Positions 17,548 through 46,168 of a stretch of DNA of 48,220 nucleotides are shown here, piece after piece. Under the pieces are notes generated by a model. The model saw nothing but the letters and a program-made list of their open reading frames with translations, ran no database searches and was not told the DNA's origin. How positions within the stretch are numbered: the first letter of the stretch is position 1; every line of letters begins with the position of its first letter. The position numbers and the translations under genes were made by a program. Source of the DNA: Clostridia bacterium (GTDB taxonomy: Bacteria > Bacillota > Clostridia > Christensenellales > Aristaeellaceae); NCBI GenBank assembly GCA_017410445.1, contig JAFQQU010000010.1, positions 1 to 48,220 on the forward strand, in the 5' to 3' direction.

Positions 17548-17565
17548 TGGAGAGGAGTTATTTTG

Positions 17566-20500: not shown

Positions 20501-20700
20501 CGATGATCTTCCGCGAGGACGGAAACGCCGTGTTTGTCGTCGTCGGCAACGAGATGCCGGGCGTCACCTGGAAGCAGCTTGACAGCGGCAATTTCCAGAT
20601 TGATTTCTATGGCACGCCCATGGAAATCGTCTGGACGGACAAGGGCTTCGATATGAACTACATGGATTCCATGCTGATGCACTTCGTTCCCGCGAACTGA
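17566..20700 (+). CDS. Secreted BspA-type (LRR_5) leucine-rich-repeat protein with Pro/Glu linkers and two C-terminal lipocalin-like beta modules
   Basis: Signal peptide MKKILCMTLMLLMLLSCLSVRAEA. It carries many ~23-aa units of the form LTxLxIPxxVxxIGxxAFxxCxxL. The linkers are PEPEATPEPAVP and PSAPAQPETPVQPEAPAVPEAPAAPE. A GGAGAGGAG RBS lies 8 nt before ATG 17566. Confidence 0.8.
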   Translation: MKKILCMTLMLLMLLSCLSVRAEAAVWDFDTTDFRLNGYQGEGGAVVVPDTIDGCTVDIFGMYLFNDADAVTSLTLPATLKQVEDSAVAFCDSLTELIIPEGIQVIGDNCFVGNPGLTELVIPASVRYIGASSFGSNENLNKVTFLGECPVFAGAALDWIADDAEIYVPDDQYDAYAAALTEAECYSTILPSGANAVVYELTTDPSLFEFDAETGTITRFAGFDACVEVPAEIGGAAVKAIGDEAFGDNNYVCMVTLPEGLESIGASAFESCDTLLHVDFPSTLKHIGSRAFYAGYHGRALNLPAVETIGDEAFGRCVRLTDPVYLPEGLKRIGNSAFDGCGWLGEVYLPASVETIGERAFADSGMNYLVFNGLKLPEIADTAFENCWYLSDIDLHTKTTKQEMLDMQAKVDALGLTCRVWRMQNPDVDYVNDGLDTYENGVLTAYTGEQTHLRPWDTYDDVTVTALGDGVFANNTYIEYFAVPYNDEFTTIGAEAFANSSLMQIDLFDSVTTINGGAFRNCANLTELTLPESVEFVGVEALYGCTGLQKLTVLCDPTVLPEDLFDVWPEGLEIYAGENATDEQLMYLTSIAGRPFYQPVTRIGEPLPELTASPYEALPAEDFWYDTEFARLDNYQGYELNLVLPSTAEDTMLTMVGGSMMGRAMFGDNYEQELPVVSVVIPQGYTEIPPFAFQNCDTLETVICYAPLELLPDSAFSGCTSLREVVFVNGVHSIGEYVFDGCPNLETVYLGQYVENVGEFAFMDQFGDTVWSMEQCITDPALLPDIDSMLEAVKREPMAEPEPEATPEPAVPVGEEGKDFFGLWIGTEMDMGGEVMKLSDWEIIMNVLLLEDGRMIAMDEEVTDWSALDGFEAPGWRVENGVAIGDTCTMTILEDGRLLMDEDGMQIYFERSDVQIDVPSAPAQPETPVQPEAPAVPEAPAAPETSADASGRTEIKFVCESADVSGFNMAASMLGGEYSMIFREDGNAVFVVVGNEMPGVTWKQLDSGNFQIDFYGTPMEIVWTDKGFDMNYMDSMLMHFVPAN

Positions 20701-20718
20701 TCTTCCGAGGTGAATGAT

Positions 20719-22005: not shown

Positions 22006-22023
22006 CAAAGGAGGAAGACGAAA

Positions 22024-23430
22024 ATGGGCCTGATATCTGCAGGATTGAACGCTTTGAACGGCACGCTGGCCAGCCAGTGGAAGGAATTCTTCTATGCCGA
22101 CGCGATGCCGGACAATGTGCTTGCCGCCAAGGCGATGAAGAAAACCAGGGGCCGCTTCGGCGGCAGCAGAACTGAGGACGACAACGTAATCACCGAAGGC
22201 TCCGTCATCGCGGTGGCCGACGGCCAGTGCATGATGATCGTCGATCAGGGCAAAATCGTTGATTTCTGCGCCGAGCCCGGCGAATATATCTATGAGGCGG
22301 GCGGCGAGCCCAGCCTGTTCTTAGGTGAGTTCAGCGGCGAGAAGGTCAAGACCATTCTGAAGACCACCTTTGAGCGCTTCTCCTTCGGCGGCCAGGCGGG
22401 CAAGGATCAGCGCGTGTACTACTTCAACACCAGAGAACTGACCGGCAACAAGTATGGCACGCCCAGCGCTGTGCCCTTCCGCGTGGTGGATCAGAATATC
22501 GGGCTGGATATCGACGTCTCCATCCGCTGCTTCGGCGAATACAGCTACCGCATGACCAATCCGATCCTGTTCTATACGAACGTCTGCGGCAACATCGAGG
22601 GCGAGTATACCCGCGACCGCATCGACAGCCAGCTCAAGAGCGAGCTGCTGACCGCGCTGCAGCCGGCTTTTGCCCGGATTTCCGCCATGGGCATCCGCTA
22701 CAGCGCGCTGCCGGGCCATACCCTTGAGATCACCGAGGCGCTCAACGAGGTTCTGTCCGAGAAGTGGGCGAATCTGCGCGGCGTGGAGATCGTGTCCTTC
22801 GGCATGAATTCGGTCAAGGCGTCCGAGGAAGACGAGGCCATGATCAAGGAGCTTCAGAAGAACGCCGTCTTCCGCAATGCCAATATGGCGGCGGCGCATC
22901 TGGTCGGCGCGCAGGCGCAGGCCATGCAGGACGCCGCGAAGAACGCGGGCGGCGCTGTCAGCGGCTTCATGGGCATGAACATGGCGCAAGGCGGCGGTAT
23001 GAACGTATCTCAGCTGTTCCAGATGGGCGCGCAGCAGCAGGCGCAGCCTTCCGCGCCGACGCAGTCCGCTGCCGACGGCTGGAAGTGCTCCTGCGGCGCG
23101 ACGGCGACCGGAAAATTCTGCCCCGAGTGCGGCGCGAAGAAGCCCGAGCCCAAGGCGGCCGGCTGGAAGTGCCCCTCCTGCGGCGCGCAGGCGAGCGGCA
23201 AATTCTGTCCCGAGTGCGGCGCGAAGAAGCCCGAGGCCGACGGCTGGACCTGCCGCTGCGGCGCGGTAAACAAGGGCAAGTTCTGCGCGGAGTGCGGCGC
23301 GAAGCGTCCTGCGGGCGCGCCGGTCTATCAGTGCGACAAGTGCGGCTGGAAGCCCGAGGACCCGGCGCATCCGCCGAAGTTCTGCCCCGAGTGCGGCGAC
23401 CGGTTTGACGATACGGATGTGATTTCCTGA
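22024..23430 (+). CDS. SPFH/band-7-like protein of the COG4260 type (virion-core-protein-like) with four C-terminal zinc ribbons
   Basis: The N-terminus MGLISAGLNALNGTLASQWKEFFYADAMP... and the overall layout fit the stomatin/prohibitin-family proteins that carry a C-terminal Zn-ribbon. The tail holds GWKCSCGATATGKFCPECGAKKPE, GWKCPSCGAQASGKFCPECGAKKPE, GWTCRCGAVNKGKFCAECGAKRP and YQCDKCG...KFCPECGDRF. Confidence 0.7.
   Translation: MGLISAGLNALNGTLASQWKEFFYADAMPDNVLAAKAMKKTRGRFGGSRTEDDNVITEGSVIAVADGQCMMIVDQGKIVDFCAEPGEYIYEAGGEPSLFLGEFSGEKVKTILKTTFERFSFGGQAGKDQRVYYFNTRELTGNKYGTPSAVPFRVVDQNIGLDIDVSIRCFGEYSYRMTNPILFYTNVCGNIEGEYTRDRIDSQLKSELLTALQPAFARISAMGIRYSALPGHTLEITEALNEVLSEKWANLRGVEIVSFGMNSVKASEEDEAMIKELQKNAVFRNANMAAAHLVGAQAQAMQDAAKNAGGAVSGFMGMNMAQGGGMNVSQLFQMGAQQQAQPSAPTQSAADGWKCSCGATATGKFCPECGAKKPEPKAAGWKCPSCGAQASGKFCPECGAKKPEADGWTCRCGAVNKGKFCAECGAKRPAGAPVYQCDKCGWKPEDPAHPPKFCPECGDRFDDTDVIS
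23077..23400 (+). repeat. Tandem 81-84-bp coding repeats (Zn-ribbon units)
   Basis: GGCTGGAAGTGC/GGCTGGACCTGC units start at 23077, 23161 and 23242. A fourth, more divergent unit follows. Confidence 0.8.
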
Positions 23431-23496
23431 CGGAAAAGGGGCGCTGCGCCCCGGACGTCAAGCCGGAATATTCCAATACACCCCTGAAGATCAGCA

Positions 23497-23544
23497 AAAT
23501 CTCCCGGATATCCCCCTGTTTTTGGAAGGATTTCCGGGAGATTT
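23497..23544 (+). terminator. Candidate terminator of unit A
   Basis: Perfect 12-bp inverted repeat AAATCTCCCGGA (23497-23508) / TCCGGGAGATTT (23533-23544), followed by CTGTAT. The loop is long (24 nt), so the strength is uncertain. Confidence 0.4.
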
Positions 23545-23767
23545 CTGTATGGGATGAAACGCTCTGATTCATGAATGCAGAGGGGTCGGCGATTTCGGGG
23601 TTGAGGCGCGAAACCGTTTGAAATCAGCCTGTGCCGACGGCGATTTGTCCGGATTCTTTCCTATTTACTTTATATGCTTTTTTTCAGGCAGACCTTTCTG
23701 TTTTTCGCAGGCTGGATGGCTTTGCTTTCTGATTTTAAGCATGTATGAAATTTCATGATGGTTCCTC

Positions 23768-23796
23768 TTGATAAATAAAGGCAGAGATATTATAAT
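23768..23796 (+). promoter_or_regulatory. Near-consensus sigmaA promoter of unit B
   Basis: TTGATA (23768-23773), a 17-bp spacer, then TATAAT (23791-23796), set in an AT-rich 527-bp spacer. Confidence 0.7.
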
Positions 23797-23957
23797 TTAG
23801 GGAAGAGAATTGTTAGTTTTATCTGATAACAGGTTGCAGCGAAAATGGCAGGCGTCCCCGCAGGCACGGGCGACGCCTGAGGTCGATTGTTTTGGAGTGA
23901 AACGCCCCGGATTTCGGGGGGATTCTTTACTAAGTACGCAGGCGAGGGGAAATTGAT

Positions 23958-26939
23958 ATGCCCAATCAGGATTTACTCTGCTTCAGCTGTATGGCCAAGC
24001 TGCCGGAGGCGGGAGCGGTCTGTCCGCGATGCGGCCATGACAACCGGAACCGGTCGAACGGGCCGGGATATCTTTCCGGAATGATTCTGGAAAGGCAGTA
24101 TCTGGTCGGCAAGGTGCTGGGCCACGGCGGATTCGGCGTTACCTATATCGGTTTTGACATGAATCTGGCCCGCCGGGTGGCGATCAAGGAGTATTTCCCG
24201 CGGGAAATGGTGACCCGCGCGGGGAATTCCATTACGCTGCAGCCGTTTACCGGCATGGGCGACCAGTTTGCAAAGGGCTGCGAGCGGGCGCTGGACGAAG
24301 GACGGATGATTGCAAACATGCAGAACATCCCCAACGTCGTTCAGGTGTACAACGCGTTCCCGGCCAACGGCACCGTCTATACCATCATGGAATATATCGC
24401 AGGAACGACGCTGACGCATATGGTCGAGGGCGCCGGCCGTCTTCAGTGGAAGTATGCCTACGGCCAGATGAAGCCGGTCATGTTCGCGCTGGATCAGATT
24501 CATAAGCGCGGCGTTATTCACCGCGACATCAGCCCGGATAACGTCATGCTGAGCCATGAAATCGATCAGACCGTGCTGCTGGATTTCGGCGCGGCGCGCG
24601 CATATCAGGGCGTGAAAGGGCTGAGCAGCACGCTGAGGCCCGGCTTCGCTCCGGTCGAGCAGTACAGCAGCATCGCTTCGCAGGACGCGCGGACCGATGA
24701 ATATGCGCTGTGCGCGACCTTGTATTTCCTCGTAACCGGCAAAAGACCGCCGGAATCCACGCAGATTGCATACGGCGGCGTGCCGCTGCCCGATCCGATC
24801 AGCCTGGGCGCGGATATCTCCGAAAGCGTGCAGGCCGTGCTGCTGCGCGGCATGTCCGTCAGAATGGAGGAGCGGTACGGCTCGATCAGAGAGCTGATGC
24901 AGGCCTTCGATGAAGCCGAAAAGGCGCATTCCTCCAAACACAAAAAGAGAACTAAGGACAATACCTCCAATAAAGAGGGAATGAACATCGCACTGATCGC
25001 CGCGTGCGCGGGCGTAACCGTTGCGGCGCTGGTGGCGGCGATTCTGATCTTCAATAAAATTCAGGACCGGTCCGGCTCGCAGCCGGATCCGCAGCCGACC
25101 GTGCAGATTACGACTGCCACTCCGACGCCGACCGAAAAGCCGACCGAGAAGCCGACCGAAAAGCCGACCGAGAAGCCGACCGAGAAGCCGACTGCAAAGC
25201 CGACAGCGACGCCGACGATGAAGCCGACAGCGACGCCGACGATGAAGCCGACAGCGACGCCGACCGAAAAGCCGACAGCGACGCCGACTGCAAAGCCGAC
25301 AGCGACGCCGACTATGAAGCCGACAGCGACGCCGACTATGAAGCCGACAGCGACGCCTGTCGTATGGCCGGCGACGCAGCCGGAGCAGATCACCGGACTC
25401 TGGACGGACGGCGCTGATCAGTATCTGTCCTTCAGCGCAAACGGCAGATGCACGGTTACGACGCCGATGACGACGTTCAGATGGATGTGGGAGGACGCCG
25501 GCAGCGGAATGCTCAGGATGACGCTGGGCAATTACGCCGGCGAGCAGATCGCGGTCGACGAAAAAGGCGTGCTGCACATCGGCAGCGAAAAGAGCTTCTT
25601 CCGCGCCATGGGATCGATTGACGAGAGCGGATATGCGGGCATCTGGAGCGCCTGCTACTGGTCGTACGGCGGAGACCTGCGCAGCGAGGGCCGGGAGAGC
25701 ATGCTGGTACTGTCCATGGACGGCAGCGGCAGCTTCCTGAACGCGGACGGCGAGGTTGAAACCGGAAGCTGGTCCGGCGGGGACGGCGAAGCCTGGTTCG
25801 GAAAGGACAAAACGCCGATGACGCTGCTGGACGGCGGCTTCCTGAAGCTGGGCGAGGGCAAGGACTACACTGTATTCGGCTGGGGGCCGGACGCGGCATG
25901 GGCGCCGGTCGAAGGCAGCCGCGTGATGGGCATGCTGTGGGAGACGGGCGGCGACGGAAGCAACCGGCTGACGCGCAGCGATATTGCCTGCGCGGACGTT
26001 CAGGAGATCACCTTCCTGAATTCGACTGCCGACGCGCCGCGGAGCGCATGGGATTTCTCCGCGGAGGAGGACGGTTCCGTTCTGGCGTGGACCGATGCGG
26101 GCGACGACGGCATGGTCAGGCTGTATATCGGCGCGAACGGCGGCGTCAAGGCGGGCCCCGATATGAGCCGTGCGTTCTCCGGCGGAGAGAACGGCTTCAG
26201 CCGTCTTGAAAAAATCCGCATGGGCGGCGCGCTCGATACGTCTGAAACCTCGAACATGAGCGAGATGTTCGGAGGATGCGCCAGCCTGGCTGAGCTGGAC
26301 CTTTCCGGCATGAATACGGCGAATGTCGAGGATATGCAGGGCATGTTCGCCGACTGCTTCAGCCTGACAAAGCTGGATGTATCCGGCCTTGATACCTCGA
26401 AGGTCATAAACTTCGGGGATATGTTCGATTTCTGCACCAGCCTGACGGAGCTGGATATTTCCGGCTTCGATACCTCGAGCGCCGTGAATATGTTCAGCAT
26501 GTTCGGCTACTGTGAGGGCCTGACGAAGCTGGACGTATCCGGCTTTGATACCTCGAAGGTCAGCAGCATGGCTTTCATGTTCAATCATTGCACCGGCCTG
26601 ACCGAACTGGACCTGACCGCCTTCAATACATCCTCCGTCACGGATATGAGCTACATGTTTGAAGGCTGCGAGAGCCTGACCGCGCTGAACGTATCGTCCT
26701 TTGATACGTCCGGAGTGGCGTTCATGAACAGTATGTTCAAGGGTTGCACGGCGCTCCGCAAGCTGGATCTGTTCCGGTTCAACACCTCGAATGTTTTGTT
26801 CATGGACTTTATGTTCCAGAACTGCACGAGCCTCAGAACCATTCTGGCCGACCGCTACGGCTTCAGAATCCGCACCGGCGTTTCCACCACGGATATGTTC
26901 CTGGACTGCGGAACCCAGGAGCTGACTTATATTGACTGA
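23958..26939 (+). CDS. Receptor Ser/Thr protein kinase: Zn-ribbon + Hanks kinase + TM + PT-rich stalk + lipocalin-like modules + DUF285-type LRR ectodomain
   Basis: Zn-ribbon CFSC...CPRCG. Kinase motifs GHGGFGVTY, VAIKEY, HRDISPDNVML, DFGAAR and GFAPVEQY. TM helix MNIALIAACAGVTVAALVAAILIF (24981-25052). (PTEK)n/(PTATPTMK)n stalk. About eight 26-aa units LxxLDxSGxDTSxVxxMxxMFxxCxS. Confidence 0.85.
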   Translation: MPNQDLLCFSCMAKLPEAGAVCPRCGHDNRNRSNGPGYLSGMILERQYLVGKVLGHGGFGVTYIGFDMNLARRVAIKEYFPREMVTRAGNSITLQPFTGMGDQFAKGCERALDEGRMIANMQNIPNVVQVYNAFPANGTVYTIMEYIAGTTLTHMVEGAGRLQWKYAYGQMKPVMFALDQIHKRGVIHRDISPDNVMLSHEIDQTVLLDFGAARAYQGVKGLSSTLRPGFAPVEQYSSIASQDARTDEYALCATLYFLVTGKRPPESTQIAYGGVPLPDPISLGADISESVQAVLLRGMSVRMEERYGSIRELMQAFDEAEKAHSSKHKKRTKDNTSNKEGMNIALIAACAGVTVAALVAAILIFNKIQDRSGSQPDPQPTVQITTATPTPTEKPTEKPTEKPTEKPTEKPTAKPTATPTMKPTATPTMKPTATPTEKPTATPTAKPTATPTMKPTATPTMKPTATPVVWPATQPEQITGLWTDGADQYLSFSANGRCTVTTPMTTFRWMWEDAGSGMLRMTLGNYAGEQIAVDEKGVLHIGSEKSFFRAMGSIDESGYAGIWSACYWSYGGDLRSEGRESMLVLSMDGSGSFLNADGEVETGSWSGGDGEAWFGKDKTPMTLLDGGFLKLGEGKDYTVFGWGPDAAWAPVEGSRVMGMLWETGGDGSNRLTRSDIACADVQEITFLNSTADAPRSAWDFSAEEDGSVLAWTDAGDDGMVRLYIGANGGVKAGPDMSRAFSGGENGFSRLEKIRMGGALDTSETSNMSEMFGGCASLAELDLSGMNTANVEDMQGMFADCFSLTKLDVSGLDTSKVINFGDMFDFCTSLTELDISGFDTSSAVNMFSMFGYCEGLTKLDVSGFDTSKVSSMAFMFNHCTGLTELDLTAFNTSSVTDMSYMFEGCESLTALNVSSFDTSGVAFMNSMFKGCTALRKLDLFRFNTSNVLFMDFMFQNCTSLRTILADRYGFRIRTGVSTTDMFLDCGTQELTYID
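25128..25358 (+). repeat. Tandem 12-bp and 24-bp coding repeats (PT-rich stalk)
   Basis: Six copies of CCGACCGA(A/G)AAG in phase (the sixth is CCGACTGCAAAG) span 25128-25199. Six and a half copies of CCGACAGCGACGCCGACnnnnAAG run from 25200. Confidence 0.9.
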
Positions 26940-26972
26940 TCGGGAAAGCTTTCTTGAGAAAGGAGGGATGGG

Positions 26973-27791
26973 ATGCGTTCCGGCATTCAGACCAAACAAA
27001 CGGGAGCCGAGCGTACCGGCCGCGCTTTTCGCATTCTGGCGCGCGGCAGCAGCGACCCGGGCGCCCGCAGCGCTCAGCAGGATGCATTTCTCATCTCGGA
27101 CCGGAAGCTGAGCCGAGAGCGCGGCATGATGGCGGTGCTCTCGGACGGCATGGGCGGCATGCGCGACGGCGAGCTGTACAGCAGAATCGCCACGCAGGAA
27201 ATGATCCGCTATTTTGAAACCGCCGATCCCCGGCAAAACATCTGCGATATTCTGCTGAATGCATACCGCGCAGCCCGCCGGACTGCGCTTCAGCAGACGG
27301 GCGCGCACAGCGGAGGCGCGACGGTGGTCGCGGCGGCGGTGCGCAGCAGGCGCTGCGCGATTCTTTCGGTGGGCGACAGCCGGATCTGCCTGTTCCGGGG
27401 CGGCGGACTGATTCCGCTGAACCGGGAGCATACGCTGGGCCGTCAGCTGGACGAGCGGGCGGCGCTGGGCTATATTCCGGAGGAAGAGGCGCGCTACAAC
27501 ATCTACCGGGATACGCTGACCAATCACCTCTGCGCGGAAAGCGAGCTGCCGGCCGACCGGTGCCTGAAGCCGTTTAAGGTATGTCCGGGCGACAAGCTGC
27601 TGATGATGAGCGACGGCGTGTCCGGCACGCTGAGCGATGAGGAGATCGTCCGGTTTCTGAGCATGCCGCGCGTTTCCGGCGCAGACGCCATGATCGAGGA
27701 AATCCGTCGGCGCGGTCTGCCGAATCAGGACAATAGCACCGCATTGATACTGGCCTTTGAGTCTTACATAAAGACGGAAATCGGAGGATAA
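26973..27791 (+). CDS. PP2C-family Ser/Thr phosphatase, soluble
   Basis: Motifs QDAFLISD, AVLSDGMGGMRDGE, VGDSRICLF, MMSDGVSG and QDNSTALILAF. AAAGGAGGGATGGG RBS. Confidence 0.85.
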   Translation: MRSGIQTKQTGAERTGRAFRILARGSSDPGARSAQQDAFLISDRKLSRERGMMAVLSDGMGGMRDGELYSRIATQEMIRYFETADPRQNICDILLNAYRAARRTALQQTGAHSGGATVVAAAVRSRRCAILSVGDSRICLFRGGGLIPLNREHTLGRQLDERAALGYIPEEEARYNIYRDTLTNHLCAESELPADRCLKPFKVCPGDKLLMMSDGVSGTLSDEEIVRFLSMPRVSGADAMIEEIRRRGLPNQDNSTALILAFESYIKTEIGG

Positions 27792-27795
27792 TAAT

Positions 27796-28971
27796 ATGAA
27801 TAACTCTACTCAGGTCCCTGAAAGCACGCTTTCGTCTCAGGACGTCATGCCCGGACCGGCTCCGAATGGCGGCGTTGAAGTGATTCAGCCGGATGTATCG
27901 AAAATCCCCACGCAGACCCCTACGCAGACGCCCACGGCCGAACCGCAAGGAACGGCCGGGCCCGGCTCGACGGAAGCAGCCGCAATAACCCTGATCACGG
28001 AAATGCCCGCCCCCACCGGCGGAAAAACCGGCGGAGAAACCAAGGCGGATTTCCCCGGCGGCCTGATTTTCGGCATCTGTCTGGCGGCGGTCATCGCGCT
28101 GGCAGCTGCGGCCGCCGCGTATATGGCGGTGAAGCGGCAGAAGCCCGCTCCGACCCCTGATAACGGCCCGAAGGATGAGACTGGCTTCCAGAAGACGGAA
28201 GTCGTCGAGAATCCCGAGTCCGTCAGCGCGACCTGCTATGCGGCCGGCTATGCGCAGACCGTGGGCAGCCGCGGCAATCAGGAGGATTCCTGCTTCGTAT
28301 CCGACTGGAGCAATCCGGATACCGTGAATCTCAGGGGCGTTCTGGCGGTCGTGGCCGACGGCGTCGGCGGCATCAGCAACGGACAGGTTGCCAGCAATGC
28401 GGCCGTACAGAGCATGAAGGCCTATTTCGAGTCTCAGGGCGGCGGCGGCTCCATGAGCGGGCGGCTGCTTTCTCTGGCGGCGCAGGCGCAGAAGGATGTG
28501 CTGGGTGTGATCCGTCAGGTCGGCCGCTGCGCCACTACGCTGGTCACCGTGCTGATTCAGGACAGGCAGATGGTAATGCTGTCCGTCGGCGACAGCCGCA
28601 TTGCGCTGTACCGCGCAGGCGCGCTGCTGCAGCTCAACCGCGAGCATGTGGTCGGCAAGGAAATCGACGAAAATGCGGCGCTGCATGCGGAAGCCGTAGC
28701 GGACGGCCGCAAGCGGCAGGCGATCACCTCCTATCTGGGCAAGGATGATCTCCGCCTGATCGACCGGACCACCACGCCGCTTCAGCTGATTCCGGGCGAC
28801 CGCGTCCTGCTGATGAGCGACGGCGTATTCAACGCGATGAGCGACGACGAGCTGATTGCCTTCATGAACAGACCGCCGAAGCAGGCGGCGGAGGCCGTAA
28901 TCCGGGCGATTGAAGAGAAGAAGCTGTCCGGCCAGGACAACGCGACGATTGTTATTGTGGAAGTAAGATAA
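27796..28971 (+). CDS. PP2C-family Ser/Thr phosphatase with N-terminal PT-rich segment and TM anchor
   Basis: TM helix GLIFGICLAAVIALAAAAAAYMAV. PP2C motifs NQEDSCFVSD, AVVADGVGGISNG, VGDSRIALY, LLMSDGVFN and QDNATIVIVEV. The RBS lies inside the end of the upstream PP2C gene. Confidence 0.85.
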   Translation: MNNSTQVPESTLSSQDVMPGPAPNGGVEVIQPDVSKIPTQTPTQTPTAEPQGTAGPGSTEAAAITLITEMPAPTGGKTGGETKADFPGGLIFGICLAAVIALAAAAAAYMAVKRQKPAPTPDNGPKDETGFQKTEVVENPESVSATCYAAGYAQTVGSRGNQEDSCFVSDWSNPDTVNLRGVLAVVADGVGGISNGQVASNAAVQSMKAYFESQGGGGSMSGRLLSLAAQAQKDVLGVIRQVGRCATTLVTVLIQDRQMVMLSVGDSRIALYRAGALLQLNREHVVGKEIDENAALHAEAVADGRKRQAITSYLGKDDLRLIDRTTTPLQLIPGDRVLLMSDGVFNAMSDDELIAFMNRPPKQAAEAVIRAIEEKKLSGQDNATIVIVEVR

Positions 28972-28996
28972 GAGAAACGCGATGAGGTGATGCGCT

Positions 28997-31900
28997 ATGA
29001 AGAGAAGGCCTGTGATGCTGCTGGCAGCCATACTGCTGGCCGTCCTGGTGTTTCCGGCGGTTGTATGGGCCGTTTCGGGGAGCGGCGTTCTTCTGATCGA
29101 CGCTCCGAGAACCGAAGCGGAATACACCGTGCTGGGAACCTCTCTTCCGCGCAGCCGGGTTGCGTCGGTTACCTTTGAAGATACGCTGACGGCCGCTCCG
29201 GCGGATGCATGGGACGTCTCCAAGTCTCAGGACGGAAGCCTGCTGGCATGGGCGGTTCCGAACGGAAGTCTGTATGATCTGCATATTGCCGGAGAGGGCG
29301 GCGTCCGGGCCGCGCAGTATTCGGCGGGGCTCTTTGAAGGGTATACCGCGCTTCAGAGGATTTATTTCAACGGATGCTTCGATACGAGCGGCGTCATTAG
29401 TATGGACGCCATGTTCAAGGGCTGCAGCTCGCTGACCGAGCTGGACCTGACCGGATTTGACGTCGGCCGCGTTGAATTCATGGATGATTTTTTCTATGGA
29501 TGCTCTGCGCTTCAGCTCATCCGGGTCCGGGAGGACTTCGTCCCGCCCGAGGGCACGAACATGCGCCGCATGTTTTTCGACTGCAGCGCCCGGCTGGTCT
29601 ACGCTGTTGCGCCGCAGCAGCCGGCCAGCAATATTCTGCGCGGCGACCGGCTGACGGCGGCCGAGAAGACGGCCAATACCGGCAAGGTATTCGGCAGCTC
29701 CATCCCGCGCGGACAGATTGAATCGGTCGCCTTTGTAAGCAGCCTGTCCGGCATGCCGTCCGGCGCGTGGGACGTATCTGAGGAGGGCGACGGCTCCGTC
29801 ATGGCATGGACCGAGCCCGCCGGAGAGATGCATCATCTGTACATCGGCGCAAACGGCGTTATTAAGGCCGGCGCGGATACCTGCCGCGAGCTGTTCAAGG
29901 GCTATTCCAATGTAAAGACCATCCGCTTTGACGGCGCGTTTGATACGAGCGCCGCAGAGAACATGCAGCTGATGTTCTCCGGCTGCTCCGCTCTGACCGA
30001 ACTGGATGTGTCCGGCTTTGATACCTCCAATGTCAGAAACATGCTGTCTATGTTCTACGGCTGCTCCGCCCTGACCGAATTGGATGTGTCCGGCTTTGAT
30101 ACGTCTGCGGTTGAGACCATGCGGACCATGTTCTACGAATGCTCTTCGCTGAAGAAGCTGAATGTTTCGGGCTTCAATACATCAAACGTCACCAGCATGA
30201 GGTCCATGTTCTATGGCTGTGGCAGCCTGACCGAACTGGATGTATCCGGCTTTGATACGTCGGCGGTTGAATCCATGGGTGCAATGTTCTATGAGTGCTC
30301 TAGACTGGAGCAGCTGGACGTGTCCGGTTTTGACACCGGCAGAGTCACGGATATGGCCGATGTGTTTAACGGCTGTGGCAGCCTGACCGAACTGGATGTA
30401 TCCGGGTTCAATACGGAAGCTGCAACAACGATGCAGGGTATGTTCTGCGAATGCTTTGCGTTGAAGCAGCTGGATGTGTCTGGATTCAGTACCGCCGGGG
30501 TTACGGATATGTCGTTCATGTTCTATAAGTGCAATGTCTTGAGAACGTTGGATGTGTCCGGCTTTGATACGTCGGCGGTTGAGACCATGAGCGCGATGTT
30601 CTATGAGTGCTCCAGACTGGAGCAGCTTGATGTCTCCGGGTTTGATACCGGCAGAGTCATTGATATGGCGCACATCTTCTACGGCTGTGGCAGCCTGACT
30701 GCGCTGGATGTAACCGGCTTTGACACTTCGTCTGTTGCGACGATGCACGACCTGTTCTCCGGCTGCTCCGCCCTGACCGAACTGAATGTCTCCGGCTTTG
30801 ACACCGGAAGCGCTGCGGATATGTCGGGCATGTTCTCCGGCTGCTCCGCTCTGACGTATCTGGACCTGACCGGATTTGATACCGCGGGCGTATCGAACAT
30901 GTCGAATATGTTCGAAAACTGCACTGCCTTGGCGAATATTCTGGTTGGCGAGCGCTTTGTCATCGGACAGAATACAGAGACGGCAGATATGTTCACCTAC
31001 TGCAAGGCCGGAGGGCTGACCTATCTGCGCGGCGACAGCAATATTCTGCGCGGCGACGAGGGCGGGACGGTGCTGGGCAGCGAGATTCCGCGCACGCAGA
31101 TTGCGTCCGTTACCTTTGCGGACAGCCTGTCCGGCATGACAGAGGATGCATGGGACGCATCGGCGGAAGGCGACCGCTCGGTCATGGCATGGACCGAACC
31201 GAACGGCGAACTGTATGACCTGTATATCGGCGCAAACGGTGTTATTAGGGCCGGCGCGAATACCTGCCGCGGGCTGTTTAAGGGCTATTCCAATGCGAAG
31301 ATCATCCGCTTCGGCGGCTGCTTTGATACGAGCGGCGCGGCGGATATGAGCTTCATGTTCTCCGAGTGCCGCAGTCTGACGGAGCTGGACGTAAGCGGAT
31401 TTAGAACCGGCGGCGTTACGGACCTGTCCGGCATGTTCAGCTACTGCAGCGGGCTGAGAAATCTGGATGTGAGCGGCTTTGATACGCGGAACGTCCTGAA
31501 TATGGAGGATTTGTTCTTCAACTGTAGCGCGCTGGAGCAGCTGGATGTAAGCGGGTTTGATACCGCCAGCGTTACGGATATGAGCTGGATGTTTGCAAGA
31601 TGCGGCGCGCTGACCGAACTGGATATCACCGGCTTCGACACGGCCAATGTCGGGGACATGGCGCATATGTTCGAATACAGCGGCACGCTGACCCGCATTC
31701 TGGTCGGAAAAGGCTTCGTCATCGGAACCAAAACGGACACCGGAAGCATGTTTGCAAACTGTGGGGTCAGCGGGCTGACCCGTGTCTCCGACGGCGGTAC
31801 GCTCCGCCACGATATGCTCACTGTACGGGAGCGGATGAATAATGCCGGCGCCGTCATGGACAGCGGCATTCCGCGTACGCAGATTGCGGAGGTCCGCTTC

Positions 31901-40774: not shown

Positions 40775-40858
40775 GACACAACGGGTTTTCTGCGGCTCCC
40801 GTCGGGGTGCGGGGGCCGCATGGCAAACTATAACAACAATGGAGAGGGAGATTTGAGG

Positions 40859-42124
40859 ATGAAAAGACTGATTGCGGTTCTTCTGACGGCGCTCATGCTG
40901 CTGGCAATGGCGGTTCCGGCCTTCGCGGCGAGCTACGAGGACGCGTATTCCTATGTCGTCCGCATCTATACCCAGGAGTATGAGGACATCTATCTGGCCG
41001 GCACTAATGAGTGTATCGATCAGAACGTTTATGGCTATATCGGCACCGGTTTTGCCGTCGGCACGCCCGGTCAGCCCGTTCAGTATTTTGTAACCAACCG
41101 TCACGTTGTTACGCCCGATGATGATTACGTCATTGGCACCATTACCGTTGATGATCAGGAGATTCCTGTAGAGGCTTACTACAGCACCCAGAGCTACATC
41201 ATTTTCAGCAACAGCTCCGAGAAGGTTCCGGTCAATATCTACGCGGTGAGCGACCGCTGCGATCTGGCTGTCATCTCCATGAACGAGGCGACCGACAAGC
41301 GCGAGCCGGCGCTGATCTATCCGCAGGATATCAAGAAGCTGGGCCACAAGACGGTCTACTCCGTCGGCTTCCCCGGCATCTCCGATACCTATAACGACAT
41401 CAACAGCGCCATCAGCACCCTGAACTCCTATGAAAGCGACCTGACCATTACCGACGGCCTGATCTCCGCTGTCAAGGAAGACGCCGTCACCAAGGCAGGC
41501 GAGACCATCCAGCACATGGCCAAGATCAGCGGCGGCAACTCCGGCGGTCCTCTGGTGGACGCCAAGGGCTATGTCATCGGCGTCAACCGTTCGACTTGGA
41601 AAGAAGACGGCGACTATGCTCTGGCCGTATCCGCAAACGAGCTGGTTCGCTTCCTGGATGACGAGCGCGTTCCCTACATGACCGTTCAGGACTGGCAGCG
41701 CCGCAACATCATCATGATCGCCTGCATCGCGGCCTGCGTGATCGTTCTGGCCGTTGTCGCGGTACTGGTTATCAAGAAGCGCGGCGGCGGCAGCAAGCCG
41801 GTTTCCGGCGGCTCCCGCACGCTGGTCTGCACCGAAGGCGCGCTCGCGGGCAAGAGCTTCAAGATCACCCCCGGCGCCAGATTCTCCATCGGCTACGATG
41901 CTTCCCGCAGCCAGATCGTCTTCCCGAACGGCACGCCCGGCATCAGCGGCAAGCACTGCAGCATCAGCTTCGACGGCAAGACCGTTATGGTCACCGATGA
42001 AGGCTCCCGCTACGGCACCTGGATCGATCAGACCCGCCTGACGCCCGGCACTGCGACGGTCATGCACCGCGGCCAGACCCTGTACTTCGGCTCCAAAAAG
42101 CAGGCCATGAAGCTTGACAACTGA
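40859..42124 (+). CDS. Trypsin-fold (S1) serine protease ectodomain - TM - cytoplasmic FHA domain
   Basis: Signal peptide MKRLIAVLLTALMLLAMAVPAFA. Triad contexts FVTNRHVV, CDLAVISM and GGNSGGPLVD. TM helix IIMIACIAACVIVLAVVAVLVI. FHA FSIGYDASRSQIVFPNGTPGISGKHCSISFDGKTVMVTDEGSRYGTWID. A GGAGAGGGAG RBS precedes ATG 40859. Confidence 0.8.
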   Translation: MKRLIAVLLTALMLLAMAVPAFAASYEDAYSYVVRIYTQEYEDIYLAGTNECIDQNVYGYIGTGFAVGTPGQPVQYFVTNRHVVTPDDDYVIGTITVDDQEIPVEAYYSTQSYIIFSNSSEKVPVNIYAVSDRCDLAVISMNEATDKREPALIYPQDIKKLGHKTVYSVGFPGISDTYNDINSAISTLNSYESDLTITDGLISAVKEDAVTKAGETIQHMAKISGGNSGGPLVDAKGYVIGVNRSTWKEDGDYALAVSANELVRFLDDERVPYMTVQDWQRRNIIMIACIAACVIVLAVVAVLVIKKRGGGSKPVSGGSRTLVCTEGALAGKSFKITPGARFSIGYDASRSQIVFPNGTPGISGKHCSISFDGKTVMVTDEGSRYGTWIDQTRLTPGTATVMHRGQTLYFGSKKQAMKLDN

Positions 42125-42172: not shown

Positions 42173-42724
42173 ATGCCGCGCAACAACGAATACAACAATT
42201 TCGGAACCCAGCCCGACACCCCCTTCAACTACACCGTTTCCCCGTCCACCCCGATCAACAGCGTGTCCGATGACGTGACCCCCGGTGTGTACAGACCCAC
42301 TCAGGTGTCCGGTGAGTCCGGATCGAGAGATACCGAGGTTTACGATCAGATCAGTGTTGACGGCGAGCAGATCCGCCCGGTCGTCGGCTGGCTGGTATGC
42401 ATTCAGGGCCCGTGCAGAGGCAAGGACTTCCGCCTGCACACCGAGCGCAACTACATCGGCCGCGATAACGCGAGCGTGGACATTTCCATTCCCGACACTA
42501 AGATCAGCCGCGACAACCCCGCCATCCAGATCGCGTATGATCCGGTCGGCCGCGGCTTCTATGTAGCCGCCTGCACCGGCGCGAAGCAGAACAGCTACTT
42601 CAACGGCCGTCTGCTGATGAGCGAGCGCGAGATGCAGGTCGGCGACATCATCAAGCTGGGCGAGACCGAGCTGATGTTCGTCCCCTTCTGCGGCGAGAAG
42701 TTCGACTGGGGCGAGAACGCTTAA
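42173..42724 (+). CDS. Cytoplasmic FHA-domain protein with Thr/Ser/Pro-rich N-terminal tail
   Basis: The FHA core reads WLVCIQGPCRGKDFRLHTERNYIGRDNASVDISIPDTKISRDNPAIQIAYD...YFNGRLL...IIKLGETELMF. The first ~65 aa are low-complexity with many T/S residues. Confidence 0.75.
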   Translation: MPRNNEYNNFGTQPDTPFNYTVSPSTPINSVSDDVTPGVYRPTQVSGESGSRDTEVYDQISVDGEQIRPVVGWLVCIQGPCRGKDFRLHTERNYIGRDNASVDISIPDTKISRDNPAIQIAYDPVGRGFYVAACTGAKQNSYFNGRLLMSEREMQVGDIIKLGETELMFVPFCGEKFDWGENA

Positions 42725-42755: not shown

Positions 42756-44534
42756 ATGGAGAAAATGTGCTATCGCTGCCTGCAGGAGACGATCAAGAAA
42801 GGCCGCTGCACCGCATGCGGCGCTCCCGAGGTCAGCCGATCGGAAAACGATAGCGAACTGCTGCCGCTGGGCACTTTGCTGGACGACGGCAGCATCATCG
42901 TCGGAGACTGTCTGGGCCGCGGCGGCTTCGGATCGACCTACATCGCGCGCGATCTGAAGAACAAGACGCTCATCGCGTTGAAGGAGTTCGCTCCGCGCCA
43001 TATGATGCTTGAACGGCAGGGTCTGGATATCCGGATCATGCCGGACAAGCAGCAGGTGTACGAAAAGTCGCTGGCCAGCTTTCGGCGCGAATCAAAACTG
43101 CTTGGAAAATTGAACCATCCCAATATTGTGCGCGTCTATTTTGATATGGACGAGAATAACACTGCGTATTACGGCATGGAACTGCTGCAAGGCAAGGATC
43201 TGAGGCAATGGACCGACGGCCGGCTCCCTCTTCAGCCCCAAGAGGCGTTCGATCTGCTGTATCCGGTCATGGACGCTCTGAATTATCTCCATAAGGAAAA
43301 GAACACGCTGCACAGAGACATCAGCCCGGACAATATCTTCATCCGGACGGGCGATCAGTATCCCGGCGGAATATCGCCCTGTCTGATCGACTTCGGCGCG
43401 GCCTACACCGCCATGAACGACTTCACGCAGAGCGCGCCCGGCGTCAAGAAGAGCGGATTTTCGCCGCTGGAGCAGAACTGGGACCGCTCCCTTCAGGGCA
43501 GCTATACCGACGTATATGCCTTCGGAGCGACCTTCTATTACCTGATCACCGGCCAGATTCCGCCGCCTTCGACCGACCGGAGGCAGGACAACGATATTCT
43601 CAAGGCGCCCAGCAGCTTCAATCCCGGCATTTCGCCGGAGCTGGACCGCGCCGTGCTGCATTCGATGGCGCTCCGGCCGCAGGACCGCGTTCAGAACATG
43701 AAGCAGTTCATCTATGAAGTGGGCGCTGCGCTGAACGCCGAGAAAGGGCCTGCGGTCATGGACGATTCCAAGGTGATCGGCGGAGAGGATGAACCGCCCC
43801 GGAGAAAAGACGGAAAGCGGGAGACTGCGCATCTGCTGGCGTCTGCTGTGGACTGGGCGCTGTTCTATCTGCTTCCGACGCTGCTGCTGTCGGCAGTTTC
43901 GCCGGTGCTGGGGATTGTTTTGGGATTCATCCTGATGACGGGCGTCGGCATCATCTGCTGCAGCCTGCCCGGATGCGCAACGCCGGGACAGCGGCTCATG
44001 AAGATTCGCCTTGTGGGCTTGTATTCGATCGGCAATCTGATCTGCTACAGCCTGCTGCGGGCGCTGGTCCCGCTGGCGCTGGCCGATGAGATTGCAGCCA
44101 TGATTCAGGGAAGCAGACGCTCCCGCATCGAGCAGATGACCCGGATTGCAGCCATCTCGACGCACGGTCTGGCTCAGGATATCCCCCACCCGCCGATCGG
44201 TCATCGGTCTGTCTGGGCGATCGAAAATCAGGCGAGCCTGTACTGCCTGTCGGGCCTTATGAAGGGAAAGAGCATTGTGCTGATCAGGATGCATGTATTC
44301 GGACGGGATTCCGATCAGGCGACGTTTCTGTTCCCCTCCGCAGACCTGTCCATCAGCCACAGACACTGCATGATCTTCTTCCAGGACGGCGGATGGTATA
44401 TCAAGGATCTGGGCTCGCGCAACGGAACGTTTGTCAACGGCAAACGGCTCGGCGAAGGACAGACGTCCGACCGCCTGAACAGCGGCGATCAGATCCGGAT
44501 CGGCGAGGAGATTCTCGTTTTCAAATTATCTTAG
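42756..44534 (+). CDS. Zn-ribbon - Hanks Ser/Thr kinase - RDD-like membrane domain - FHA domain
   Basis: Zn-ribbon CYRC...CTACG. Kinase motifs GRGGFGSTY, IALKEF, HRDISPDNIFI and DFGAAY. RDD-like AVDWALFYLLP...CATPGQRLMKIRLVG. Canonical FHA FGRDSDQATFLFPSADLSISHRHCMIFFQDGGWYIKDLGSRNGTFVNGKRL. Confidence 0.85.
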   Translation: MEKMCYRCLQETIKKGRCTACGAPEVSRSENDSELLPLGTLLDDGSIIVGDCLGRGGFGSTYIARDLKNKTLIALKEFAPRHMMLERQGLDIRIMPDKQQVYEKSLASFRRESKLLGKLNHPNIVRVYFDMDENNTAYYGMELLQGKDLRQWTDGRLPLQPQEAFDLLYPVMDALNYLHKEKNTLHRDISPDNIFIRTGDQYPGGISPCLIDFGAAYTAMNDFTQSAPGVKKSGFSPLEQNWDRSLQGSYTDVYAFGATFYYLITGQIPPPSTDRRQDNDILKAPSSFNPGISPELDRAVLHSMALRPQDRVQNMKQFIYEVGAALNAEKGPAVMDDSKVIGGEDEPPRRKDGKRETAHLLASAVDWALFYLLPTLLLSAVSPVLGIVLGFILMTGVGIICCSLPGCATPGQRLMKIRLVGLYSIGNLICYSLLRALVPLALADEIAAMIQGSRRSRIEQMTRIAAISTHGLAQDIPHPPIGHRSVWAIENQASLYCLSGLMKGKSIVLIRMHVFGRDSDQATFLFPSADLSISHRHCMIFFQDGGWYIKDLGSRNGTFVNGKRLGEGQTSDRLNSGDQIRIGEEILVFKLS

Positions 44535-44546
44535 GAGGATACGCCA

Positions 44547-46109
44547 GTGAAAAAGTTTTTTTCGGTACTGCTTGCGGTTATTCTGTGCTTTGCGCTGTCC
44601 GGCGTCAGCATGGCGGAGCCCGGAGAGCTGCTGAGCATTCAGAGTATTGCCATTAACGATGACCGCACCATTGAGATGCAGTTCTACAGCGCTGCGTCCG
44701 AGACGCTGCAGCCGTCTGATCTGACCCTTACGCTGGACAATGATGAGCTGGCGGTGGACACCGTATTCGGCCATAGCACGGTCGGAATGGGCACCTCCTG
44801 GCTCTTCCTGGTGGATACGTCCACCGTTTCGACCCGCTCCGGCGACGAACCGGTCAAAGCGCTGCTCAACGGCCTGATTGGAGGCATCGGCGAGAAGGAC
44901 AATGCGGCGATTCTGTCCACCGGCGTTGAACTGGACGGCATCGAGCTGGTCGAAAACAAGAAGACCCTTGAAAACATGATCGATTCTCTTCTGAAGTCCG
45001 ATCCGGCCAAGCTGAACGCGACCATCAACACCGCGCTGGACTTCCTGAAGAAGAACGAGGACGTTCTCGCTCGCTCCTGCGTGGTCATCATCTCCAACGG
45101 CGAGAACATCGATGCGGATGAGGCGGAACTGAAGAAGCTGCAGAACGCCGTTGCCAAATCCGGCGCGACCGTACACACCGTTTCCTTCGCCAGAAATTAT
45201 GCCAGCAAGGATGCGCTGAGCTGCTATGCCTCCATTTCCGCGGCCAGCATCGGCGGCCTGAATTTCCAGGCCGAAATCAAGCCCAAGGAGGAAATCGTCG
45301 CCGGCATGGCCGAGCAGATTTTCGCCAATGAACAGCTTTTCCGCACGCTGAAGACCCAGCCTGTTCCGGAAAACGTCGACGGCTCCAAGCTGACCCTGAC
45401 TCTGAATGCGTCGGGCGTTCAGGGCGTATACACCCTCACCGCCGGCGAACAGCTGAACCTGAGAATGAGCCGCCCGCTCCCGAGCGAAAAGCCTACCCAG
45501 AAGCCCACCATTGATCCGACCGCCGATCCGACCGCCGATCCGACCGCCGATCCGACCGCCGATCCGACCGTAGCGCCGACCGACGGTCCTATTCCCGATC
45601 CCGATCCTGATGATTATCTGGTTTATGTGCTGATCGGCGTGGGCGCCATTGCCCTGTGCGCGGTCATCATCATGATCAACGCGGTCCGCAAGGGCAGAAA
45701 GCAGAAAGACGTCGTCGTACCGCCCGCACCGATCGATCCGGTCGGTCCGCCGGATGAACCGGACGGCCCTGTTGAGCCGGAGAAGCCGGAGAAGACCGGC
45801 AAGATCCGCGTCATGCTGACGCTCCTCGATTCGAACCGCGACGCGGTCTATACCGCGGACATGGTAAGCGAGCTGCTGGTCGGACGCGATATGACCAGCG
45901 TCAAGCTCCTCCTGCCGTCGGACGACCTGAAGATTTCCGGCACGCATCTGGTCCTGCGCTACATCCAGGGCACCATGTTCGTGGAGGACCTGAGCCGCAA
46001 CGGCACGAGCGTCAACGGCCAGCGGATTCAGAAGCTGACCAAGCTGCGCCAGCACGACGTCCTGACCATGGGCGTCAGCCGCTTCCGCATCACGTGGGTC
46101 GAAGAATAA
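44547..46109 (+). CDS. vWA-like ectodomain - PT stalk - TM - cytoplasmic FHA domain
   Basis: Signal peptide MKKFFSVLLAVILCFALSGVSMA. vWA-like strand/motif pattern WLFLVDTSTVS...AILSTG...NATINTAL...VVIISNGEN. (PTAD)4 stalk. TM helix YVLIGVGAIALCAVIIMINAV. FHA VGRDMTSVKLLLPSDDLKISGTHLVLRY...VEDLSRNGTSVNGQRI. Confidence 0.75.
   Translation: MKKFFSVLLAVILCFALSGVSMAEPGELLSIQSIAINDDRTIEMQFYSAASETLQPSDLTLTLDNDELAVDTVFGHSTVGMGTSWLFLVDTSTVSTRSGDEPVKALLNGLIGGIGEKDNAAILSTGVELDGIELVENKKTLENMIDSLLKSDPAKLNATINTALDFLKKNEDVLARSCVVIISNGENIDADEAELKKLQNAVAKSGATVHTVSFARNYASKDALSCYASISAASIGGLNFQAEIKPKEEIVAGMAEQIFANEQLFRTLKTQPVPENVDGSKLTLTLNASGVQGVYTLTAGEQLNLRMSRPLPSEKPTQKPTIDPTADPTADPTADPTADPTVAPTDGPIPDPDPDDYLVYVLIGVGAIALCAVIIMINAVRKGRKQKDVVVPPAPIDPVGPPDEPDGPVEPEKPEKTGKIRVMLTLLDSNRDAVYTADMVSELLVGRDMTSVKLLLPSDDLKISGTHLVLRYIQGTMFVEDLSRNGTSVNGQRIQKLTKLRQHDVLTMGVSRFRITWVEE
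45513..45572 (+). repeat. Tandem 12-bp coding repeat GATCCGACCGCC x4 (+1 imperfect)
   Basis: Units start at 45513, 45525, 45537, 45549 and 45561, encoding DPTADPTADPTADPTADPTV. Confidence 0.9.
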
Positions 46110-46128
46110 GCCGCATAAGCAAAAGATA

Positions 46129-46168
46129 CCGTGCGGGAAGCCGATGGATGGCTTCCCGCACGGTTTTT
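46129..46168 (+). terminator. Strong Rho-independent terminator closing unit B
   Basis: CCGTGCGGGAAGCC-gatggat-GGCTTCCCGCACGG forms a 14-bp perfect stem, followed by TTTTT. Confidence 0.9.

Follow-up and report, generated by a model that had tools for sequence, protein, structure and literature searches.

This work deals with a protease gene of a Clostridia bacterium (Christensenellales; Aristaeellaceae; assembly GCA_017410445.1) on contig JAFQQU010000010.1, of which positions 1-48,220 of the forward strand were analysed and are called here the window. The gene encodes a protein of 421 aa in which a Sec signal peptide is followed by an HtrA/DegS-like S1 protease domain, one transmembrane helix, a short linker and an FHA domain. 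A previous interpretation made from the DNA letters (the sequence-only reading) had proposed a signal peptide, an S1 protease, a transmembrane helix and an FHA domain in this open reading frame, and Pfam, hydropathy and AlphaFold2 agree with it. The features of the gene are the following:

40841-40850, + strand: ribosome-binding site (Shine-Dalgarno) GGAGAGGGAG, read from the sequence, 8 nt 5' of the ATG at 40859
40859-42124, + strand: the gene, 421 aa, with signal peptide, S1 protease, transmembrane helix and FHA domain (open reading frame, Pfam, homologues, AlphaFold2)
40859-40927, + strand: predicted Sec signal peptide, residues 1-23, with an MKR n-region, a hydrophobic core (4-22) and an AFA/AS cleavage-type site (hydropathy)
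40955-41668, + strand: extracytoplasmic HtrA/DegS-like S1 protease domain without PDZ, residues about 33-270 (Pfam, PDB profile, Foldseek)
41102-41104, + strand: catalytic His82 (VTNRHVV), aligned to the catalytic His context YIVTNNHVV of DegQ
41261-41263, + strand: catalytic Asp135 (CDLAVI)
41540-41542, + strand: catalytic Ser228 (GNSGGP), aligned to GNSGG of DegQ and Deg5/8
41708-41776, + strand: single transmembrane helix, residues 284-306 (core 287-305), followed by the positive-inside stretch KKRGGGSK (hydropathy, AlphaFold2, family charge)
41810-42118, + strand: cytoplasmic FHA domain, residues 318-420 (Pfam FHA, domain model, Foldseek)
41894-41896, + strand: Tyr346 (codon TAC) where the 'GR' motif of canonical FHA domains has its phosphate-binding Arg (codon; alignment to the Arg of 1uht)
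42011-42013, + strand: Tyr385 at the canonical FHA Asn (SxNGT changed to SRYGT), with Arg384 at the Thr/Ser pocket position (alignments)

The six-frame listing of open reading frames gives a longer frame at 40820-42124 (+ strand, 434 aa). The ATG at 40859 is preferred as the start because the 32/32 aligned homologues begin at an equivalent MK(R/K) and GGAGAGGGAG lies 8 nt upstream of it, and the alternative start at 40820 was dropped for these reasons. In the protein, Pfam Trypsin_2 (PF13365) matches residues 62-242 over the full profile (1-144; E-value 9.2e-21, 75.5 bits against a curated cut-off of 27.6), and Pfam FHA (PF00498) matches residues 343-411 (E-value 2.6e-11, 44.2 bits against a curated cut-off of 20.7). 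The full-length AlphaFold2 model, built with a 32-sequence alignment, has a mean pLDDT (predicted local distance difference test) of 91.6 and is composed of the protease domain, a helix (276-309), a disordered hinge (309-314) and a beta-sandwich (320-420). The presence of a protease and an FHA domain in one protein is confirmed as a real architecture, far beyond chance, which is repeated in thousands of sequence clusters.

A search for Trypsin_2 and FHA in one protein had been suggested in the sequence-only reading. Among 1.84 billion cluster representatives, the exhaustive profile search returned 3,046 proteins with E <= 1e-30, which corresponds to about 3,000 clusters when sequences are grouped at 50% identity. 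The best 150 of the 3,046 all have E <= 1e-101; 148 of these match the whole profile in their best stretch and the other two match it in two pieces. Eight members of 523-760 aa (P0121, P0124, P0126, P0128, P0129, P0145, P0203 and P0241) also match the profile in two stretches, which suggests an extra domain or a second FHA/protease module. The word-indexed search gave 188 matches, the best 120 of which all carry Trypsin_2 and FHA; their source names are generic ('trypsin-like peptidase domain-containing protein', Eubacteriales, Clostridia, Oscillibacter, Faecousia). The scan of species-representative genomes used the generic motif GNSGGPL and samples the taxonomy rather than surveying it; among the matches listed, those with both domains belong to Lachnospiraceae, Butyrivibrio, the cultured Paenibacillaceae Cohnella yongneupensis, Akkermansiaceae and Pseudomonadota. 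Hence, the architecture is not rare, and it is common in gut and rumen Clostridia. A full-text literature search found no functional or comparative study of this family.

Concerning the protease half, the triad His82/Asp135/Ser228 was invariant first in 120/120 and then in 247/247 family representatives, so that the motifs TNRHVV, CDLAVI and GNSGGP were rightly taken as the triad contexts in the sequence-only reading. In the alignment of the single sequence, VTNRHVV and GNSGGP match the catalytic His and Ser motifs of DegQ. The best solved relatives found with the family profile in the PDB are HtrA1 (E-value 2e-24), DegP, DegQ, DegS and plant Deg proteases. Foldseek with the model gives the same picture: the best 50 matches are all protease domains of the HtrA family (HtrA/DegS/DegP/DegQ/Deg1/2/9; E-value 2e-11), and the target-normalised template modelling score (TM-score) against DegS-deltaPDZ is about 0.7. 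The catalytic domain is therefore HtrA-like, yet the protein lies outside the HtrA family in the strict sense, because it has no PDZ domain and no NCBIfam model of this group comes near its cut-off. Pfam detects no PDZ domain, and in the AlphaFold2 model only the transmembrane helix and the FHA domain lie on the C-terminal side of the protease domain. With NCBIfam no model exceeds its cut-off: the HtrA/DegS/DegP/DegQ models reach 21-51 bits where 357-756 would be required, and the MamE/MarP models are far below theirs too. Judging from the invariant triad and the DegS-like predicted fold, the protease looks active.

Regarding the topology, exactly two hydrophobic stretches are present in the 421-aa protein. 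An N-terminal hydrophobic signal is found in 118/120 relatives and the transmembrane helix in 119/120, and the mean net charge of these 120 relatives is +3.6 in the 13 residues after the transmembrane core versus +0.2 in the 10 residues before it. Furthermore, 29/247 members have a lipobox-like (lipoprotein) signal, which is sensible only if the N-terminal domain is exported. According to hydrophobicity and the positive-inside rule, the protease is thus predicted to be outside and the FHA domain in the cytoplasm in the whole family. The opposite sides proposed in the sequence-only reading are maintained, and a location of both domains on the same side, which it had named as the outcome that would overturn it, is not what these data indicate. 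Both domains stay close to the membrane: about 14 residues separate the end of the protease domain from the transmembrane helix, and about 12 lie between the helix and the start of the FHA domain. Since the receptor kinase and the VWA-like protein described below have long Pro/Thr-rich stalks, in contrast to this short spacing, the active site would be placed at the membrane surface, beside the stalks.

The FHA half was modelled separately (residues 316-421, pLDDT 96.4). In Foldseek, this model has TM-scores of 0.75-0.85 and root-mean-square deviations of 1.6-2.7 A to the phosphothreonine-binding domains of FhaA/Rv0020c, GarA, OdhI, DgcB and MDC1, and its matches include 1uht, YscD structures and the CT664 FHA, the second-best match, which has Ser at the Arg position. 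For the FHA domains of 1uht, CT664, FhaA, GarA and DgcB, the TM-scores of 0.75-0.85 come with deviations of 1.6-2.0 A. Pfam Yop-YscD_cpl also matches the tail. In the alignment to the Arabidopsis FHA 1uht, Gly345, Ser363 and His366 are retained and two of the five signature residues are replaced. Thus, the phosphothreonine-binding residues expected in the sequence-only reading are there only in part: Gly, Ser and His are kept, and Arg and Asn have become Tyr346 and Tyr385. Membership in the FHA fold, an 11-strand beta-sandwich, holds; nevertheless, the signature that binds the phosphothreonine peptide (Gly-Arg...Ser-x-x-His...Asn-Gly) is incomplete in the window copy, which makes canonical phosphothreonine binding by it uncertain.

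Among the 247 relatives, Gly, Ser and His are each present in 247/247 and Arg in 223/247, which suggests that the FHA pocket is under selection. The Asn position is occupied by Tyr in 195 relatives, by His in 19, by Phe in 15 and by Asn in 7. At the Arg position, Tyr is found in the window protein alone; P0002-P0005, the relatives nearest to it, carry Thr or His. As judged from these alignments, S-[ST]-Y-G-T is a form of the FHA signature that distinguishes this family, and the sub-clade of the window protein (P0001-P0005) lacks the Arg too.

The loss of Arg346 is repeated, in about five clades counted by eye among 120 members. Arg or Lys is found at position 364 or 384, two adjacent sites of the pocket, in 15 of the 19 Arg-less members versus 21 of the 101 that keep Arg (Fisher p = 2e-6, kinship ignored), and the window protein has Arg384. 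A simple swap, in which the loss of Arg346 is matched by a gain of Arg/Lys at 384, was also considered and is not significant by itself (4/19 versus 9/101, p = 0.13); only the test for 364 or 384 is. In the FHA domain of kanadaptin, a His in place of the Asn still holds the pT+1 carbonyl (PMC4157861). The phosphate is contacted there by the GR arginine and the Ser, and also by Arg208, which comes next after the Ser, and by the Thr position; the last two correspond to positions 364 and 384. These contacts, together with the pattern of neighbouring Arg/Lys, are suggestive but not proof that the pocket of the window copy should not be written off. Because the pocket Arg is Tyr346, binding in this copy may be either retuned, with Arg384 as a possible substitute, or weakened. 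The change of Asn to Tyr and the repeated loss of Arg with an adjacent basic residue form a natural experiment, a possible series for the study of ligand recognition and specificity in FHA domains.

The neighbourhoods were examined with the precomputed annotation of five homologue loci and by tblastn of the window proteins against 16 loci from four phyla (Clostridia, Lachnospiraceae, Cohnella, Akkermansiaceae, Gammaproteobacteria and other Pseudomonadota). In 16/16 loci, PP2C genes are found no more than a few kb away from the protease-FHA gene; one or two Hanks kinases are present in 15/16, and a homologue of a small FHA-like protein (32-49% identity) in 15/16. The link to Ser/Thr phosphorylation drawn in the sequence-only reading is thereby strongly supported. 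The protease-transmembrane-FHA gene, the small FHA gene, PP2C and the Hanks kinase are a conserved, near-obligate signalling cassette with a dedicated protease. In the window, the small FHA-like gene and a kinase are directly downstream of the protease gene, and two PP2Cs and a second kinase are 12-17 kb upstream in the same co-directional cluster. The four co-directional genes from the protease onward are separated by gaps of 48, 31 and 12 bp, and one strong terminator follows them. The members of the cassette and the genes associated with it in the window are:

23958-26939, + strand: receptor-like kinase, 993 aa, with Zn ribbon, Hanks kinase, transmembrane helix, Pro/Thr-rich stalk of about 80 aa and a DUF285/BspA leucine-rich repeat (LRR) ectodomain
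26973-28971, + strand: the cassette's phosphatase arm, two PP2C genes, one for a soluble protein of 272 aa and one for a protein of 391 aa anchored in the membrane with its N-terminus out (Pfam)
42173-42724, + strand: small soluble FHA-like protein, 183 aa, with a Thr/Ser/Pro-rich N-terminal tail and a divergent FHA (Pfam Yop-YscD_cpl/FHA; family alignment)
42756-44534, + strand: 592-aa protein with Zn ribbon, Hanks Ser/Thr kinase, RDD-like membrane segment and canonical FHA (Pfam, hydropathy)
44547-46109, + strand: 520-aa protein with signal peptide, VWA-like ectodomain (weak), Pro/Thr-rich stalk, transmembrane helix and canonical cytoplasmic FHA (Pfam, hydropathy)
46128-46164, + strand: strong terminator-like hairpin with a 16-bp stem and a T tail, which ends the co-directional run (sequence)

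Few neighbours of the protease gene are as constant as the small FHA-like protein, which belongs to a separate conserved family and has homologues in L001, L003, L005-L009, L011-L015, L018, L019 and L026. Many members of this family have an N-terminal CxxGH...CPxC zinc ribbon together with a linker of low complexity, in which GKT(V/M) motifs recur that may be phospho-acceptor sites. Their FHA is divergent (GR and S are kept, SxNGT is lost) and the C-terminal motif L-x-F-V-P-x-C-G-E-x-F-x-W is conserved. The window copy is without the zinc ribbon and has Pro where its relatives have the FHA His.

The 520-aa protein has a topology like that of the protease-FHA protein. Its VWA assignment is weak (VWA_CoxE, E-value 0.14; DUF58, E-value 0.048), and the term 'VWA-like' comes from a weak PF00092 match of its homologue in L005. 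In the receptor-like kinase the layout of plant LRR receptor-like kinases is reversed, its stalk is made of (E/A/M)KPT repeats, and the two PP2C genes follow it directly; the membrane-anchored PP2C (27796-28971) has an acidic Pro/Thr-rich N-out tail.

The window and the loci L005 and L006 share the order protease-FHA, small FHA, kinase-transmembrane-FHA, VWA-like-transmembrane-FHA. In L005 and L006 the PP2C pair is just upstream of the protease gene: it is adjacent in L006, and two FHA-less protease paralogues stand between in L005 (7959-9884), one of 258 aa recognised by Pfam Trypsin_2 and another of 324 aa that only tblastn relates to the window protease. Upstream in the same co-directional cluster of the window, four giant LRR proteins are encoded, of which three (758-1652 aa) have a C-terminal PG_binding_1. 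Because LRR/PG_binding genes occur in only 2/16 loci, the closest relatives L005 and L006, and not in the other 14, the LRR proteins are clade-specific accessories and not core partners. This does not favour the sequence-only reading, where the wall-bound LRR proteins were the obvious candidate substrates.

Known defence systems, including the TerY-P triad, were also considered for these genes and rejected, as the matches in PADLOC (RT-Protease_XI, LmuA, PD-T4-6) concern only kinase and trypsin domains at a generic level. PADLOC gave 0 families for the VWA-like protein and both PP2Cs, and nothing for the small FHA protein.

The best explanation for these data, to which a rough probability of 0.45 is given, is that the protein could be a membrane-proximal ectoprotease and a dedicated subunit of a membrane Hanks-kinase/PP2C/FHA cassette, in which FHA docking would couple the kinase state to extracellular proteolysis. 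In the family at large, the cassette kinases would create the phosphothreonine sites on which the FHA tail docks, and the cassette PP2Cs would erase these sites, dissolving the phosphothreonine-FHA complex at the membrane. Docking would set the protease beside the extracellular stalks or ectodomains of its partners, that is, the kinases and the VWA-like-transmembrane-FHA protein. Cleavage of an extracytoplasmic target would then link the state of the kinases to proteolysis on the membrane's outer face. Given an active site at the membrane surface, the most accessible targets would be the membrane-proximal stalks or ectodomains of the partners, or nascent exported proteins. We infer a cassette phosphoprotein as the FHA ligand, a control of docking over where or when the protease acts, and the substrate itself. 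The alternative given in the sequence-only reading, recruitment to a phosphorylated kinase, is its part best backed by the data. On the other hand, its proposal of inside-out control is weakened, since this is one of two possible directions and the sequence favours neither.

Several points weigh against this explanation. The window copy is without two of the five FHA signature residues, having Tyr346 for Arg and Tyr385 for Asn, and the canonical Asn is replaced nearly family-wide (Asn in 7/247). Four of the 19 Arg-less members have no substitute residue, and the Arg/Lys test ignores phylogeny. Moreover, the cassette kinases and PP2Cs, whose link to the protease is one of gene neighbourhood only, could act on other targets.

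A further reading is phosphorylation-gated extracellular proteolysis, in which the kinase/PP2C state, through the FHA tail, would decide both the assembly of the HtrA-like protease next to its target (for example, the stalk of the receptor kinase or of the VWA-like protein) and its activation. This is rather unlikely at present, but if true, thousands of Clostridia and other bacteria would possess an 'inside-out' switch for the shedding of ectodomains.

The rival that survives best, and which is about as doubtful as the gated reading, is that a pseudo-FHA tail, in the window protein or in the sub-clade P0001-P0005, would bind its partner constitutively and independently of phosphorylation (a kinase fold, for example), so that the protease would be a fixed structural member of a scaffold. 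It would agree with both tyrosines of the pocket, with the absence of the Arg also in P0002-P0005, and with the resemblances of the tail, which matches Yop-YscD_cpl and has among its structural matches YscD and, as the second-best, CT664 with Ser instead of the Arg. The FHA-like domains of YscD/MxiG in type III secretion systems are ring-building modules. In the type VIIb secretion system, the FHA domains of EssC/YukB bind the pseudokinase YukC/EssB, and the FHA region of YukB copurifies with the pseudokinase domain of YukC in E. coli without the cognate eukaryotic-like Ser/Thr kinase (PMC9600267). However, the invariance of Gly345, Ser363 and His366 and the presence of Arg in 90% of the relatives are hard to explain without a phosphate pocket. 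Members that lost the Arg often carry Arg/Lys next to it in the pocket, as the window protein does with Arg384, and one or two PP2C genes and a kinase stand beside the gene almost everywhere.

Somewhat less probable is an outside-in protein, a DegS-like sensor or site-1 protease, which overlaps with the docking explanation except for the direction. In this case, the engagement or cleavage of an extracellular ligand or of a partner ectodomain, for instance the Pro/Thr-rich stalk of the LRR receptor kinase or the VWA-like protein, would alter the oligomeric state, cluster the FHA tails and change kinase/PP2C signalling. DegS is a membrane-anchored stress sensor that performs the site-1 cleavage of RseA, and HtrA domains are trimers. 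The closest structures to the window protease are DegS and other HtrA proteases, its single-pass topology may favour signalling by oligomerisation, and its partners have exposed low-complexity stalks. Nevertheless, Pfam recognises neither a PDZ nor any other ligand-sensing domain on the protease, anti-sigma/sigma pairs and site-2 proteases are absent from the Pfam-annotated genes of the window cluster (15822-46109), and FHA domains are known as readers and not as emitters of signals.

Finally, it is quite improbable that the protein is chiefly an HtrA-like secretion protease for the processing or quality control of the giant BspA/DUF285 LRR wall proteins, with a secondary FHA tail: Gram-positive HtrA proteins do act on nascent secreted proteins at the membrane, the three LRR proteins with PG_binding_1 are encoded directly upstream on the same strand, and LRR/DUF285 genes also flank the cassettes of L005 and L006, but 14 of the 16 loci have no LRR/PG_binding genes, whereas all 16 have PP2C and 15 a kinase, and FHA pocket residues as conserved as the catalytic triad argue that the tail is not incidental.

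Other features were observed in the window. At its head (15822-23430, + strand), the co-directional cluster has a series of genes for small membrane or zinc-ribbon proteins. They encode one protein with a double zinc ribbon, one with PG_binding_1, one of 172 aa whose N-terminus has a hydrophobic segment, an LRR_5 protein of 1045 aa, a 431-aa zinc-ribbon/transmembrane protein and an SPFH (Band_7_1) protein with a double zinc ribbon. The G+C content is about 0.47-0.53 in 1-14000 versus 0.56-0.62 across the LRR/kinase cluster (16000-30000), and this rise may mean that the cluster was horizontally acquired. At the left end, 1-1061 holds the 3' end of cas9 (Cas9 PAM-interacting domain, E-value 2.7e-69), which probably runs off the edge, and 1356-1733 is a CRISPR array with at least six copies of the 36-nt repeat GTTTGAGAGTTGTGTTGTTTTAGAGGGTAATCAATC at a period of 66 nt. 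No cas1 or cas2 lies between cas9 and the array, and the open reading frame at 1178-1666 (- strand), which overlaps the array, is probably spurious.

Concerning the significance of these findings, Hanks-type kinase pathways control envelope functions through FHA readers, as in actinobacterial cell-wall synthesis and type VI secretion. Neither of the two domains is new, nor are FHA-coupled envelope effectors, and databases already show the architecture. The transmembrane fusion of an FHA domain to an extracellular protease, its cassette and its unusual FHA pocket are undescribed as far as we found, and to our knowledge a direct transmembrane coupling of a Hanks-kinase pathway to an extracellular protease has not been described. 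Given the size of the family and its recognisable four-gene core, one suitably chosen experimental system would annotate thousands of 'trypsin-like peptidase domain-containing proteins', and it could show how commensal Firmicutes remodel or shed surface receptors upon kinase signalling.

Compared with known systems, the window protein resembles HtrA/DegP/DegS (MEROPS S1C; DegS of E. coli) in its catalytic fold, its triad contexts, its extracytoplasmic location and its tethering to the cytoplasmic membrane. It differs from them in having no PDZ, in being anchored by a C-terminal transmembrane helix after a cleaved signal peptide instead of an N-terminal anchor, and in the added FHA domain. The only published mention found in the literature of an FHA domain and a trypsin fold in one bacterial protein is NP_811686.1 (FHA-FHA-Trypsin) of Bacteroides thetaiotaomicron, a catalogue entry in a 2008 survey of prokaryotic serine proteases (PMC2605481). 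That protein has the opposite domain order, with two N-terminal FHA domains, and was catalogued without topology, neighbourhood or function.

A similar set of domains is found in several phosphorylation-dependent switches. The combination of vWA, PP2C and Ser/Thr kinase (plus Zn ribbon), called the 'TerY-P triad', has been described as such a switch (PMC11090510), and so have the archaeal pair ArnA (FHA) and ArnB (vWA) and a vWA-STPK-FHA-PP2C operon of Deinococcus (PMC6509490; bioRxiv 10.64898/2026.01.23.701218). These modules share with the window the repertoire of a VWA-like protein, PP2C, Zn-ribbon kinase and FHA. However, they are cytoplasmic and without a protease, whereas the window components are membrane-embedded except for the small FHA-like protein and one PP2C. 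In the threonine phosphorylation pathway of type VI secretion (PpkA-PppA-Fha1, and the binding of Fha to phosphothreonine in TssL of Agrobacterium), the binding of an FHA domain to phosphothreonine on a membrane protein is reported to trigger the activity of an envelope machine (PMC3953482). The pathway also resembles the window in bringing a Hanks kinase, PP2C, FHA and VWA together at the membrane. The window has no type VI secretion genes, carries VWA-like-transmembrane-FHA and kinase-transmembrane-FHA proteins instead of a kinase-transmembrane-VWA protein, and has a protease as output.

Plant KAPP, composed of a membrane anchor, a kinase-interacting FHA domain and PP2C, binds phosphorylated LRR receptor kinases. 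There, too, an FHA domain brings a membrane-tethered enzyme to a phosphorylated LRR receptor kinase, and the window encodes an LRR receptor-like kinase and a membrane-anchored PP2C. The likeness is one of analogy only, with homology limited to the domains, and the enzyme of KAPP is cytoplasmic.

The actinobacterial serine/threonine kinase (STK) and PP2C systems, including the ABC transporter Rv1747 with its FHA domains, also use a phosphothreonine reader to couple the kinase state to an envelope function. The actinobacterial cluster fhaA-fhaB-pstP-rodA-pbpA-pknA-pknB has, like the cassette, FHA proteins, PP2C, an envelope effector and one or two Hanks kinases; the order in L001 is FHA-FHA-PP2C-PP2C-protease/FHA-STK-STK, and the actinobacterial FhaA/Rv0020c and GarA are the closest FHA folds to that of the window protein. 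In contrast to these operons and to Rv1747, the window family is found mainly in Clostridia, has Tyr in place of the FHA Asn, and joins its FHA domain through a transmembrane helix to an extracellular protease.

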